Assembly (NCBI RefSeq): GCF_013122565.1
Contig: NZ_CP053258.1
Length of the DNA stretch: 64,000 nt
Source of the DNA: Escherichia coli
Lineage (GTDB): Bacteria > Pseudomonadota > Gammaproteobacteria > Enterobacterales > Enterobacteriaceae
Direction: 5' to 3' (one strand)
Shown piece after piece: positions 20,703-25,377 of this stretch. A program made the translations under genes and the position numbers. Under the pieces are notes generated by a model. It searched no databases, was not told where the DNA came from, and saw only the letters and a list, made by a program, of their open reading frames with translations. Every line of letters starts with the position of its first letter. The first letter of the stretch is position 1.

Positions 20703-21593
20703 ATGATGTTTAAGCAATACCTGCAAGTAACGAAACCAGGCATCATCTTTGGCAACCTGATCTCGGTGATTGGGGGATTCCTACTGGCCTCAAAGGGCAG
20801 CATTGATTATCCCCTGTTTATCTACACGCTGGTTGGGGTGTCACTGGTTGTGGCGTCGGGTTGTGTGTTTAACAACTACATCGACAGGGATATCGACAGA
20901 AAGATGGAAAGGACGAAGAATCGGGTGCTGGTTAAAGGCCTGATCTCTCCTGCTGTCTCGCTGGTGTACGCCACCTTGCTGGGTATTGCTGGCTTTATGC
21001 TGCTGTGGTTTGGCGCGAATCCGCTGGCCTGCTGGCTGGGGGTGATGGGCTTTGTGGTTTATGTCGGTGTTTATAGCCTGTACATGAAACGCCACTCGGT
21101 CTACGGCACATTGATTGGTTCGCTCTCAGGCGCTGCGCCGCCGGTGATTGGCTACTGTGCGGTAACCGGCGAGTTCGATAGCGGCGCAGCGATCCTGCTG
21201 GCTATCTTCAGCCTGTGGCAGATGCCTCACTCCTATGCCATCGCCATTTTCCGCTTTAAGGATTACCAGGCGGCAAACATTCCGGTACTGCCGGTGGTAA
21301 AAGGCATTTCGGTGGCGAAGAATCACATCACGCTGTATATCATCGCCTTTGCCGTTGCCACGCTGATGCTCTCTCTTGGCGGTTACGCTGGGTATAAATA
21401 TCTGGTGGTCGCCGCGGCGGTGAGCGTCTGGTGGTTAGGTATGGCCCTGCGCGGTTATAAAGTTGCTGATGATCGAATCTGGGCGCGCAAGCTGTTCGGC
21501 TTCTCTATCATCGCCATCACTGCCCTCTCGGTGATGATGTCCGTTGATTTTATGGTGCCGGACTCGCATACGCTGCTGGCTGCTGTGTGGTAA
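20703..21593 (+). CDS. cyoE: Protoheme IX farnesyltransferase (heme O synthase)
   Basis: 296-aa product from [22 protein letters not shown] track start is 15 codons upstream. Confidence 0.95.
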
Positions 21594-21608
21594 CACAACC
21601 TCTCTATT

Positions 21609-21636
21609 AAAAAGGTGCTACGGCACCTTTTTTATT
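21609..21636 (+). terminator. Rho-independent terminator of the cyo operon
   Basis: aaaaAGGTGCtacgGCACCTtttttatt: GC stem, 4-nt loop, T-run. Confidence 0.7.
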
Positions 21637-21646
21637 GTCTGAGATC

Positions 21647-21724
21647 AGAGATACGGCTAATAACCGTATCTCTTGACAGAGTGAGCAGATGCACATAAAT
21701 TAATCATACGGTTGATAGCCGTAT
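21647..21724 (+). promoter_or_regulatory. Promoter with two ATACGG-N7-CCGTAT palindromes, candidate operators of the antitoxin-toxin operon
   Basis: Palindrome 1 at 21647-21673 (agagATACGGctaataaCCGTATctct), TTGACA -35 at 21673-21678, TAAATT -10-like at 21696-21701, palindrome 2 at 21706-21724 (ATACGGttgatagCCGTAT). Confidence 0.55.
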
Positions 21725-21777
21725 TATGTATGAGATCGACTCCCTACGATTTCATTCAGTTAATCAAAGAGGTCACA

Positions 21778-22089
21778 ATGCCTGGAAAAACAGCCACTCT
21801 ACCCGATGTCGATAAAACGCTGAAAAATGCGCGGGTTGAACTCAAAACCAGTCCCGACGCCAAAAACAGACTTCGTGAAGCTGCGCAAGCCGTTGGGTTA
21901 GATTTAAGCGCCTTTATTTTGAGCGCTGCTATGGAACGCGCCGAAAGCGTGCTTGATAACCAACGTCGCCGTGAGCTTTCGAATCAAAGCTGGGAACTGA
22001 TGAACCAACTCATCGCCGAACCTGCTCAACCGACGCTCGCACTCAAGGCGTTAATGAAAAGGAAAAACAGCGATGGTCGACAAGCATGA
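21778..22089 (+). CDS. DUF1778 (RHH-fold) antitoxin of a GNAT-toxin type II TA module (TacA/AtaR-like)
   Basis: About 103 aa from MPGKTATLPD with AAGAGG RBS 7 nt upstream; motif LSAFILSAAMERAESVL typical of DUF1778 antitoxins; 17-nt overlap with the downstream toxin; absent from this junction in K-12. Confidence 0.75.
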   Translation: MPGKTATLPDVDKTLKNARVELKTSPDAKNRLREAAQAVGLDLSAFILSAAMERAESVLDNQRRRELSNQSWELMNQLIAEPAQPTLALKALMKRKNSDGRQA

Positions 22090-22615
22090 AGAGATTACTC
22101 TGCCCATAGTCCTCTCCTGTAATTATCAGTCTGATATTACTTATCCTGGGCAAAAACAGTTTGATTGCGGTAACCCTGTTATCGATAAATTTGTACGCAC
22201 ATCGCTAAAGAAAAGTGTGCGTAATAGCGACTGTGCGGCTAAAGCACTTATTGACAGACAAAGTGGTGAACTGATTGGCATCTGTACTTTTACGGCATAT
22301 TCGCTGGAAAAACAACGCGTTTCTGGCGTCCTTCAGGGTTCACAGCCTTCAGAGATTGGTGTTGTCAGATTAGTCATGTTGGGGGTGGCGCGGAAGTATC
22401 AAAAGCGGGGCTTTGGTCAGGACCTACTATGTGATTTTTTTGAACATGTAAAAATAATTCACCAGGCATTACCAATTAAAGGGGTTTATCTTGATGCTGA
22501 CCCTGCCGCCATTAACTTTTATGCTCGTCTCGGCTTTGTTCAGCTTTCAGCGACACCAAATGCTTTTGGTGCTGTACCTATGTTTTTGGCGATTCAGCAT
22601 ATTCTCGCGGCTTAG
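22073..22615 (+). CDS. GNAT-family acetyltransferase toxin (TacT/AtaT/ItaT-like, probable aminoacyl-tRNA acetylating)
   Basis: 180 aa; acetyl-CoA-binding motif VRLVMLGVARKYQKRGFGQDLL and C-terminal FYARLGF; operonic with the DUF1778 antitoxin. Confidence 0.75.
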   Translation: MVDKHEEITLPIVLSCNYQSDITYPGQKQFDCGNPVIDKFVRTSLKKSVRNSDCAAKALIDRQSGELIGICTFTAYSLEKQRVSGVLQGSQPSEIGVVRLVMLGVARKYQKRGFGQDLLCDFFEHVKIIHQALPIKGVYLDADPAAINFYARLGFVQLSATPNAFGAVPMFLAIQHILAA

Positions 22616-22629
22616 ATTATTATCGCCAC

Positions 22630-22668
22630 CCGCCAGGGCAAGTCTTGCCTCAGCCGGGGGCTGAGTAG
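22630..22668. terminator. Hairpin between the convergent toxin and Sel1-repeat genes, putative bidirectional terminator
   Basis: CTCAGCCgggGGCTGAG inverted repeat at 22649-22665. Confidence 0.45.
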
Positions 22669-22670
22669 CG

Positions 22671-23606
22671 TTACCACTTTTGTTCAATTGCCCCCGCTTT
22701 CAGCAACTCCACATCCTTGCCGTTAATGGTTGCCGTTGCGGCAACGATTGTGGTCCTTACAGTTGCACAAGATTTTCGCTCAAATTCCGGTTTATAAAGA
22801 ATTAGAGACGAATTACTGGTAAATGAATCAAATATGTAATCAGTAAAGCTAATATTCAGCCGGTTTAAACCGAAAGGCGCGAAGCCAACCGTTTGGTTAA
22901 TCTCTTTACCGGATGGGCTACGAATGCTGAATGTCACGCGAAGATTGGCCACTTCGCCTAATTTATTGGTGGTGACGAAGAGGCTATCCATGCAGGAAAA
23001 ACCTTTATCTAAAAAATTATCCCGCATCCCAGAACGGGTAACCGTGATCACGGGTAATGTATCGTCAACCGTTTTTCTGTCAATCATGTCTTTTCGACAT
23101 GTAGCCAGAAAGTCTTCCGGACCACCATAAATGTGGACACCTTTATCAAGATATTCCTTCGCTTTCTTACAATCTACCTCAACATACTGACCATTGGCGT
23201 ACATCATGCCCAACCTGGACCATGCTAAATTCACACCGTATTGCGCGGCCTGATTAAATAGTGCATACGCTTTGGCATAATCCACCCGCACCAGCTCACC
23301 GTCGTAGTAGATACTCCCCAGCGCTAACGGAGCTTCTCTGTCACCGTGTTTAGCGGCTAACTCGAACCATTTAATCGCTTCCTGAACATCAGGTTTGGTA
23401 TCATAACGAGGCTGATAATATTCCCAGCCTAACAGGCTCTGCGCGTCGACATCTCCCAATTCAGCCATTTTATGCAGTGTATTTATAACATCGGGCGCAG
23501 GTTGACCACCATATATGCTGTCATACAATTCATGAGCTTTCTCGCTTGCCACCACGCCTGGTGAAACTATTAGCATTAAAGAAAATAATATTCTTTTAGT
23601 TAACAT
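22671..23606 (-). CDS. Secreted Sel1-repeat (TPR-like) protein with uncharacterised beta-rich C-terminal domain
   Basis: Likely start at internal Met giving MLTKRILFSLMLIVSPGVVA signal peptide; about three Sel1 repeats (LGWEYY, LGSIYYDG, LGMMYANG); AT-rich; absent from this junction in K-12. Confidence 0.7.
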   Translation of the reverse strand: MLTKRILFSLMLIVSPGVVASEKAHELYDSIYGGQPAPDVINTLHKMAELGDVDAQSLLGWEYYQPRYDTKPDVQEAIKWFELAAKHGDREAPLALGSIYYDGELVRVDYAKAYALFNQAAQYGVNLAWSRLGMMYANGQYVEVDCKKAKEYLDKGVHIYGGPEDFLATCRKDMIDRKTVDDTLPVITVTRSGMRDNFLDKGFSCMDSLFVTTNKLGEVANLRVTFSIRSPSGKEINQTVGFAPFGLNRLNISFTDYIFDSFTSNSSLILYKPEFERKSCATVRTTIVAATATINGKDVELLKAGAIEQKW

Positions 23607-24012
23607 GTATACCTTTATGTCCTCACTGTCATATATTTCCATAATAATTAACCACCAAGCATCCATTTAATGAATAAATACAGTGCCATAAATGCCCAAG
23701 TAATAAGCACACATTTAGCCTGAAACATTATCATCCATGTCACCAAATCGTTTATTTAGTAAGATAAAACTAGCATATTCGTAAGATAAAAAATGCACAT
23801 GGTAATCAAGAAATGATATTATTATTTTTTTGATGTAAAACTATTTAGCTTTAAAATTCATTTTTTCAACATATAGAGCATTCATTTTATGAATGCAAAA
23901 AACATACCTGACACACAAATTATTCTCCTCTGTAATATTTTCTCATTAACACTCTGTTTACCCAACATGCGCTCCGCACTACACTATGTGGGCATTTTTT
24001 TAAGAGGTGGTA

Positions 24013-25377
24013 ATGAACGATTATAAAATGACACCAGGTGAGCGGCGCGCGACCTGGGGTTTAGGAACCGTTTTCTCGTTGCGCATGCTGGGCATGTTTA
24101 TGGTTCTGCCGGTTCTGACCACGTACGGCATGGCTCTGCAAGGTGCCAGCGAAGCATTAATCGGTATTGCCATTGGTATTTATGGTCTGACTCAGGCCGT
24201 TTTTCAGATTCCGTTTGGCCTGCTTTCCGACCGCATTGGTCGCAAACCATTAATTGTCGGTGGGCTGGCGGTGTTTGCCGCCGGTAGCGTTATCGCTGCG
24301 CTTTCTGACTCCATCTGGGGAATTATTCTGGGCCGGGCGCTACAAGGCTCCGGTGCGATTGCCGCTGCCGTTATGGCGCTGCTTTCCGATCTCACGCGCG
24401 AACAAAACCGCACCAAAGCGATGGCGTTTATCGGCGTGAGCTTTGGCATTACCTTCGCCATTGCGATGGTGCTTGGCCCAATCATCACTCACAAACTTGG
24501 GCTGCACGCGCTGTTCTGGATGATCGCTATTCTGGCAACGACCGGCATTGCATTGACCATTTGGGTTGTGCCCAACAGTAGCACTCACGTACTTAATCGT
24601 GAGTCCGGAATGGTGAAAGGCAGTTTCAGTAAAGTACTGGCGGAACCGCGGCTGCTGAAACTCAACTTTGGCATTATGTGTCTGCACATGCTTCTGATGT
24701 CTACGTTTGTTGCCCTGCCCGGACAGCTGGCTGATGCGGGGTTCCCGGCGGCTGAACACTGGAAGGTCTACCTGGCAACGATGCTAATCGCCTTTGGCTC
24801 GGTCGTGCCTTTCATAATCTACGCTGAAGTTAAGCGCAAAATGAAGCAAGTCTTTGTCTTCTGCGTCGGGTTGATCGTGGTTGCGGAAATTGTGTTGTGG
24901 AACGCACAAACGCAGTTCTGGCAACTGGTAGTCGGCGTGCAGCTTTTCTTTGTGGCGTTTAATTTGATGGAAGCCCTTCTGCCCTCACTTATCAGTAAAG
25001 AGTCGCCAGCAGGTTACAAAGGTACGGCGATGGGTGTTTACTCCACCAGCCAGTTTCTTGGCGTGGCGATTGGCGGTTCGCTGGGCGGCTGGATTGACGG
25101 CATGTTTGACGGTCAGGGTGTATTTCTCGCTGGCGCAATGCTGGCCGCAGTGTGGCTGGCAGTCGCCAGTACCATGAAAGAACCGCCGTATGTCAGCAGC
25201 TTACGCATTGAAATCCCTGCGGACATTGCCGCAAACGAAGCGTTAAAAGTACGTTTGCTGGAAACTGAAGGCGTCAAAGAAGTGTTGATTGCAGAAGAAG
25301 AACATTCAGCTTATGTGAAAATCGACAGCAAAGTGACGAATCGCTTTGAGGTTGAACAGGCAATTCGTCAGGCATAA
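24013..25377 (+). CDS. yajR: MFS transporter YajR
   Basis: 454-aa product from MNDYKMTPGERRATWGLGTVFSL; AAGAGG RBS; ORF track start at 24007 is an upstream GTG. Confidence 0.92.
   Translation: MNDYKMTPGERRATWGLGTVFSLRMLGMFMVLPVLTTYGMALQGASEALIGIAIGIYGLTQAVFQIPFGLLSDRIGRKPLIVGGLAVFAAGSVIAALSDSIWGIILGRALQGSGAIAAAVMALLSDLTREQNRTKAMAFIGVSFGITFAIAMVLGPIITHKLGLHALFWMIAILATTGIALTIWVVPNSSTHVLNRESGMVKGSFSKVLAEPRLLKLNFGIMCLHMLLMSTFVALPGQLADAGFPAAEHWKVYLATMLIAFGSVVPFIIYAEVKRKMKQVFVFCVGLIVVAEIVLWNAQTQFWQLVVGVQLFFVAFNLMEALLPSLISKESPAGYKGTAMGVYSTSQFLGVAIGGSLGGWIDGMFDGQGVFLAGAMLAAVWLAVASTMKEPPYVSSLRIEIPADIAANEALKVRLLETEGVKEVLIAEEEHSAYVKIDSKVTNRFEVEQAIRQA

Follow-up and report, generated by a model that had tools for sequence, protein, structure and literature searches.

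The island between cyoE and yajR

The DNA analysed here, referred to below as the window, is a 64,000-nt stretch of Escherichia coli (NZ_CP053258.1, assembly GCF_013122565.1), with all coordinates counted from its start. Between cyoE and yajR it carries a small antitoxin gene and a GNAT toxin gene, interpreted below as the type II toxin-antitoxin (TA) operon itaRT, followed by a convergent gene for a Sel1-repeat protein. Alignment of the window to K-12 holds to position 21636, past the cyoE terminator, and diverges from 21637; similarity resumes weakly at about 23927 and cleanly from 24003. The island so delimited (Table 1) has a GC content of 42.7%, against 51–52% in its flanks. No target-site duplication and no terminal repeats of 8 nt or more were found at its edges, so no claim is made about the mechanism of insertion.

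In the open reading frame (ORF) listing and the raw sequence, an ATG at 21778 with AAAGAGGT just 5′ of it opens a frame of 103 codons whose stop ends at 22089. The second frame, of 180 codons, begins at an ATG (22073) preceded by AAGGAAAA. Shine-Dalgarno sequences thus lie ahead of both start codons, and the antitoxin gene comes first, with a 17-nt overlap (22073–22089) coupling its translation to that of the toxin gene. Two in-frame starts further upstream in itaR (TTG at 21712 and ATG at about 21731) were considered and set aside: 21778 is the start that RefSeq calls, it has the Shine-Dalgarno sequence, and it fits the reported protein size of 11.4 kDa. A 29-codon out-of-frame leader ORF without a Shine-Dalgarno sequence was rejected as spurious.

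An earlier reading of the window, made without database searches (the sequence-only reading), had described a module inserted after cyoE, consisting of a DUF1778 antitoxin of about 103 amino acids (aa) from 21778 that overlaps a 180-aa GNAT acetyltransferase gene by 17 nt, at a site where cyoE and yajR adjoin in K-12. The ORFs and Pfam matches bear this description out, the insertion is real, and in MG1655 cyoE (b0428) and yajR (b0427) are adjacent, with 148 nt between them. The interval given for the module, 21600–22670, covers the TA pair and omits the third inserted gene, that for the Sel1-repeat protein.

The gene pair as itaRT and its candidate operators

A search of all PDB chains with the toxin returned one overwhelming match, 7BYY, at 392.8 bits, with 178 of 180 residues identical when the engineered G115D is counted. 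This structure is of ItaT from E. coli HS with G115D introduced as an inactivating substitution (PMC7367177); the window toxin has the wild-type G115. Compared with the HS genome copy it is identical at 179 of 180 positions, with T43 here and A43 in HS, while the antitoxin matches HS ItaR at 101 of 103, with R31 and L41 in place of K31 and V41. The two window proteins are identical to RefSeq WP_032170811.1 (ItaT) and WP_001577859.1 (ItaR), and their calculated masses (19.8 and 11.4 kDa) agree with the published values. Pfam assigns the toxin to Acetyltransf_7, _10 and _1 (E 1.6e-07 to 1.9e-05). The acetyl-CoA motif, described as intact in the sequence-only reading, is so: RLVMLGVARKYQKRGFG occupies residues 99–115, with the Q/RxxGxG loop present as QKRGFG at 110–115. 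In the NCBIfam scan no model matches ItaT and ItaR gives sub-threshold matches only, and no PADLOC defence-system model matches either protein.

The surroundings agree as well. On the E. coli HS chromosome, genes annotated as DUF1778, GNAT and TPR proteins sit between cyoE and yajR, as in the window. The HS ItaRT system (Wilcox et al. 2018, PMC6125619; structure 7BYY, Zhang et al. 2020, PMC7367177) resembles the window in its locus, Sel1 neighbour, gene overlap and promoter region, and differs from it only as an allele, with 69 nucleotide differences over about 2413 island positions. The orthologous genes are EcHS_A0501 and its neighbour in HS and, according to the original paper, ECD_00377-00378 in BL21(DE3) (PMC6125619). 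The type II GNAT/DUF1778 assignment, proposed in the sequence-only reading as of the TacAT/AtaRT/ItaRT kind, is thus supported by both the Pfam families and ItaT orthology. The pair is most probably a chromosomal itaRT operon with the mechanism described for the HS allele, from which its functions are taken; a probability of about 0.95 is assigned to this. The system itself is already known, its toxin, structure, targets and locus all having been published.

The HS allele has been studied in some depth. ItaT alone arrests growth of MG1655, ItaR rescues it, and the two form a tight complex (PMC6125619). ItaT acetylates Ile-tRNAIle (PMC6125619); Val- and Met-tRNA are acetylated too, in vivo and in vitro, when it is overexpressed (PMC7367177). 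Y150 acts as the general acid and G115 lies in the acetyl-CoA loop; the pocket for the side chain is made up of V36, I37, F40 and M102, the dimer interface depends on L133, and the face proposed to bind tRNA is on helices alpha1 and alpha2 (PMC7367177). Ribosome profiling found A-site pausing at AUU and AUC, which points to Ile-tRNAIle(GAU) as the primary physiological target, and overexpressed peptidyl-tRNA hydrolase (Pth) counteracts the toxicity (PMC9177977). Every ItaT residue tested by published mutagenesis is kept in the window protein; those present are V36, I37, F40, M102, G115, Y150, K39, R42, K46, K47, R50, K80, R82 and L133. Because each of these functional residues is in place, the same mechanism is inferred for the window allele (ItaT T43; ItaR R31, L41), which is expected to behave as the HS allele does.

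By this analogy, ItaT would be a dimeric GNAT enzyme that acetylates charged isoleucine tRNA, and Val- and Met-tRNA also if overexpressed. The acetylated aminoacyl-tRNAs would be barred from peptide-bond formation, so that ribosomes would stall at AUU and AUC and growth would halt; peptidyl-tRNA hydrolase would recycle the acetylated tRNAs. The C-terminal part of ItaR would bind and neutralise ItaT, and the ItaR-ItaT complex would repress the operon through the N-terminal ribbon-helix-helix of ItaR. For the HS allele, each of these steps has been demonstrated experimentally.

Upstream of itaR, a predicted sigma-70 promoter is bracketed by two perfect 19-bp palindromes, O1 and O2 (Table 1). The island starts 14 nt ahead of O1. 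The generalized motif RTACGG-N7-CCGTAY occurs twice in the window, only as O1 and O2, where shuffled sequences give an expectation of 0. In HS, the promoter activity of a 172-bp upstream fragment is repressed by ItaR together with ItaT, active or inactive, and not by ItaR alone (PMC6125619). If the coordinates given by Wilcox et al. 2018 (−183 to −11) are counted from the itaR ATG, this fragment corresponds to 21595–21767, and the predicted promoter lies inside it.

The motif is also found in relatives of the operon. Eight independent ItaT-family loci, with 39–78% toxin identity, were compared: from Salmonella, a mixed Enterobacteriaceae cluster, Serratia, Dickeya, Providencia, Xenorhabdus, a second E. 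coli family member and one metagenome contig. All eight have a motif of the RTACGG-N7-CCGTAY type ahead of the antitoxin gene, six of them in two copies; the spacing is 55 nt between O1 and O2 in the window and 55–60 nt in the homologous loci. The four promoter regions inspected (L007, L012, L016 and L019) share one layout of palindrome, TTGAC −35, −10 hexamer and palindrome. Where cassettes lie in unrelated contexts, nucleotide similarity begins exactly at the first palindrome and stops at the toxin stop codon.

A structural parallel comes from KacA-KacT of Klebsiella pneumoniae (PDB 5ZGN, 5XUN; Qian et al. 2019, PMC6698736), also a GNAT toxin with a DUF1778 ribbon-helix-helix antitoxin. In PDB 5ZGN the KacA4KacT2 hexamer was crystallised on a 27-bp operator DNA, AAATGTACGGTTATTAACCGTACATGA (PMC6698736). 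This DNA contains GTACGG-TTATTAA-CCGTAC, whose GTACGG-N7-CCGTAC core matches O1 and O2, and repression by ItaRT is likely to follow the same pattern, with a T-A2-A2-T hexamer on a single palindrome. KacA contacts bases through R8, D10 and R12 in this structure (PMC6698736), with which R19, E21 and K23 of ItaR align. The published KacAT arrangement differs in having one palindrome, over the transcription start, whereas in itaRT two flank the promoter. Since the motif is conserved upstream across the family and forms the core of the KacAT operator, O1 and O2 are very probably the itaRT operators, which the antitoxin-toxin complex would bind. Repression would then act at both ATACGG-N7-CCGTAT palindromes: O1 adjoins the −35 hexamer, O2 covers the expected transcription start, and a single ItaT-ItaR2-ItaR2-ItaT hexamer probably sits on each, by analogy with KacAT and AtaRT, so that the two together would occlude the promoter. 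As far as the ItaT literature shows, this KacAT-like palindrome pair bracketing the promoter is a modest addition to published ItaT work.

Table 1. Positions of features in the cyoE–yajR island of the window, and of long leaders in related cassettes.
Feature	Position	Strand	Remarks
Low-GC island	21637..23926		between cyoE terminator and yajR promoter region; right edge approximate; 2.3 kb
Candidate operator O1, ATACGG-CTAATAA-CCGTAT	21651..21669		perfect palindrome; ends 3 nt before −35
Predicted sigma-70 promoter of itaRT	21673..21701	+	TTGACA (21673-21678), 17 nt, TAAATT (21696-21701); 10/12 consensus
Candidate operator O2, ATACGG-TTGATAG-CCGTAT	21706..21724		perfect palindrome; starts 5 nt after −10; over expected transcription start
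itaR, RHH/DUF1778 (TacA1) antitoxin	21778..22089	+	103 aa, 11.4 kDa; Pfam PF08681, E 2.8e-17
itaT, GNAT aminoacyl-tRNA N-acetyltransferase toxin	22073..22615	+	180 aa, 19.8 kDa; orthologous to HS ItaT
GC-rich hairpins between convergent itaT and Sel1 genes	22635..22662		ViennaRNA
Sel1-repeat protein gene, third island gene	22671..23606	−	311 aa, signal peptide; Pfam Sel1 x3, best E 2.4e-06
Long leaders of ItaT-family cassettes	L009:2489-2708, L014:2508-2708, L019:1487-1708, L016:1447-1714, L012:2501-2699, L007:2520-2705		

Distribution, relatives and neighbouring insertions

Of 5426 complete E. coli genomes, 1367 (25%) carry the island, each with one chromosomal copy, and in K-12-like and O157:H7 genomes the cyoE–yajR site is empty. 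Identity of itaRT to the window is at least 99% in 25 genomes and 95–99% in 1343, so that the window allele is a minority allele among carriers; in strain 14EC033 the itaRT DNA is 100% identical to it. Flanking core DNA is 97.7–98.7% identical to K-12, which makes the divergence of the island of the same order as that of the core genome. Shigella flexneri and some E. coli have only truncated fragments of ItaT among the matches found. A tblastn search of a phage collection gave near-identical matches in two unannotated 2–6-kb records labelled “Escherichia phage”; these were taken as host-DNA fragments and discounted as evidence of phage carriage.

Outside E. coli, ItaT-family pairs are often prophage cargo and lack the Sel1 gene. 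The pair lies between the gpA/Dam replication gene and the portal gene of P2-like prophages in L009 and L010, between terminase and lysis genes of a lambdoid Serratia prophage in L012 and L013, and beside a phage integrase in L016, with other pairs in chromosomal islets. One toxin (P0020) is found, in identical form, in two contexts: the P2-like prophage of L009/L010 and a chromosomal gap between cpxP-like and cation-efflux/pfk genes (L011). L009/L010 and L011 have about 1.8 kb of DNA in common at 96% identity, which shows that the cassette moved recently. The window pair, too, would have arrived as a self-contained cassette, reaching from operator to toxin stop codon, inside a low-GC islet.

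The leaders of the cassettes in other bacteria are longer, with about 190–270 nt from the second palindrome to the antitoxin ATG, compared with 53 nt in E. coli itaRT (Table 1). They hold an ORF of 15–21 codons after a Shine-Dalgarno sequence, for example MRNQINSAKLHRYRCLS, MRNQSNSVWLHKYRCLS and MRYFDNALNLNRFRCFL. In L009 and L014 a perfect hairpin, TAGCGTAAGAAACACGCTA, lies ahead of the leader ORF, with a one-mismatch variant in L019 and a related one in L016. After the leader ORF, these same four loci (L009, L014, L016 and L019) have a conserved block, GTAACGTT-AAGGAGG, with variation at a few bases. E. coli itaRT has no such leader ORF, hairpin or AAGGAGG block.

The Sel1-repeat gene and itaRT are always found together in E. 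coli (1367 genomes match both queries), and, among the loci compared, the gene never stands beside ItaT-family pairs in other genera; it is a co-inherited island gene outside the TA module. Its product, labelled “tetratricopeptide repeat protein” in RefSeq, has Sel1 repeats at residues 54–155, and the C-terminal half, about 150 aa, is without a family match. NCBIfam gives sub-threshold matches only, and a PADLOC match is marginal at the cutoff (E 0.001, with no matched stretch). Compared with HS, the protein has 15 differences in 311 residues, far more than ItaT (1 in 180) or ItaR (2 in 103).

For 22610–22685, which spans the gap between the convergent itaT and Sel1 genes, ViennaRNA gives minimum free energies of −21.5 kcal/mol (plus strand) and −26.0 kcal/mol (minus strand). 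The GC-rich hairpins predicted there are a possible two-way transcription stop, weakly indicated since they lack a T-run. No RNA family was matched in an Rfam scan of 21500–24100 at E ≤ 1. At the other end of the island, the yajR upstream (promoter) region, 23927–24006, is strongly diverged from K-12, with a gapped and patchy alignment, in contrast to the yajR coding sequence, which keeps about 98% identity. With this divergence lying next to the island, the insertion may have remodelled yajR regulation.

Three further segments of the window are absent from both K-12 and HS. One is a second small TA-like pair between yajD and secF (41815–42331, minus strand), which encodes an 80-aa antitoxin of the ParD/CC2985 family (TIGR02606, E 1.2e-27, above cutoff) and, overlapping it, a 104-aa ORF placed where a ParE/RelE-type toxin would be expected, with no NCBIfam match. 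Another, an insert of about 2 kb, separates yajO from pgpA (33394–35370). Its ORF at 33624–35189 on the plus strand encodes a 521-aa pentapeptide-repeat protein with a weak, sub-threshold likeness to PipB2/PipB (E 3.4e-07, 29.5 bits, cutoff 354). PipB2 and PipB are type III effectors; the protein could be an EspX-like effector. The remaining segment, an insert of about 1.65 kb (48625–50275), separates acpH from malZ; its ORF at 48733–50088 on the minus strand encodes a 451-aa lysine- and asparagine-rich protein that has no NCBIfam match.

Alternative readings and possible roles

Two-gene architecture and Pfam families are the same as in other GNAT toxin systems, and the pair might on these grounds be an orthologue of AtaT, AtaT2, TacT or KacT, directed at Met-tRNAfMet or Gly-tRNAGly instead of Ile-tRNAIle. 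The sequence-only reading had held that neither the relation to AtaT nor the tRNA target could be decided from the sequence. Comparison decides the former. Against solved structures the window toxin scores 31 bits for AtaT, 30.7 for KacT and about 23 for TacT (5FVJ and 7AK8), compared with 392.8 for ItaT. It is an ItaT orthologue, not an orthologue of AtaT, to which identity is about 27% over 143 columns, nor of TacT. AtaR-AtaT of E. coli O157:H7 (PDB 6AJM, 6GTS) shares family, architecture, aminoacyl-tRNA acetylation and a hexameric repressor complex with ItaRT. It differs in its toxin, in its antitoxin (32% identity between AtaR and ItaR), in its clade (A versus B; PMC9177977) and in its target bias, which is for Met-tRNAfMet in vitro and Gly in vivo, unlike that of ItaT. 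The cyoE–yajR site was empty in the O157:H7 genome examined, so ataRT is not at this locus, which is the ItaRT locus of HS. TacA-TacT of Salmonella Typhimurium is the founding GNAT/DUF1778 TA system, and Pth detoxifies its products as it does those of ItaT, but in vivo TacT is specific for Gly-tRNAGly (PMC9177977). For KacAT, the toxin is distant, the antitoxins are 35% identical and the target tRNA of KacT is reported differently. The window protein keeps every residue of the hydrophobic pocket into which Ile, Val and Met fit. Its target, through the 99%-identical HS allele and the literature, should be Ile-tRNAIle, and orthology to any of the other toxins is hardly credible. Nor do homologues without an adjacent DUF1778 gene, which the sequence-only reading had named as a sign against a TA module, appear among the relatives: at 8 of 8 loci in other bacteria the toxin gene is immediately preceded by a TacA1/DUF1778 gene.

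Decay or domestication of the pair, with T43 of ItaT, or R31 and L41 of ItaR, abolishing toxicity or regulation, is also very improbable. Decay does occur in the lineage, as the ItaT fragments in Shigella flexneri and some E. coli (P0049, P0104–P0112) indicate, and position 43 is on the proposed tRNA-binding helix. However, both ORFs are full length, with their Shine-Dalgarno sequences and 17-nt coupling overlap, all mutationally tested residues are intact, and so are the promoter and both palindromes, where differences from HS lie outside the twelve core bases; the identical protein pair also occurs in other complete genomes. Several points do weigh against identification as an itaRT operon acting as in HS. 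The functional evidence all comes from the HS allele, not from that of the window. Position 43 is on helix alpha1 between the proposed tRNA contacts R42 and K46, and T43 might conceivably have a quantitative effect on tRNA binding. At the base-contacting positions ItaR differs from KacA at two of three (D to E and R to K), and no operator mapping or operator binding by ItaR or ItaRT was found in the ItaT literature, Wilcox et al. reporting none. The physiological role of the chromosomal module is called unknown by the same authors (PMC6125619).

That role could be abortive-infection phage defence, with the enzymology as described, rather than stress tolerance, persistence or addiction. An anti-phage role is conceivable because the pair is often prophage cargo outside E. 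coli, as in the close family members of L009 and L010, of L012 and L013, and, judging by its integrase, of L016. The gpA/Dam–portal position in the P2-like prophages presumably corresponds to the P2 old/tin anti-phage hotspot. Set against this, neither protein has a PADLOC match, the window copy is not in a prophage, and the ItaT papers, whose authors describe the function as unknown, yielded no experimental support; a role in phage defence is on balance unlikely. Because an operator half-site is common to ItaRT and the distant KacAT, co-resident GNAT/DUF1778 modules could cross-regulate each other's promoters. A broader proposal, that the ItaRT cassette is a mobile abortive-infection unit passing between prophage cargo sites and chromosomal islets, and that RTACGG-N7-CCGTAY shared with KacAT permits such cross-regulation, is speculative and can be put forward only tentatively.

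Overall, the itaRT cassette of the window is real but ordinary: roughly one in four complete E. coli genomes has its island, as does, according to the original paper, the laboratory strain BL21(DE3). For annotation, the genes labelled “GNAT family N-acetyltransferase” and “DUF1778 domain-containing protein” in RefSeq can be named itaT and itaR. The palindrome pair offers a concrete, testable operator model, and it raises the possibility of cross-talk among GNAT modules with the same half-site.

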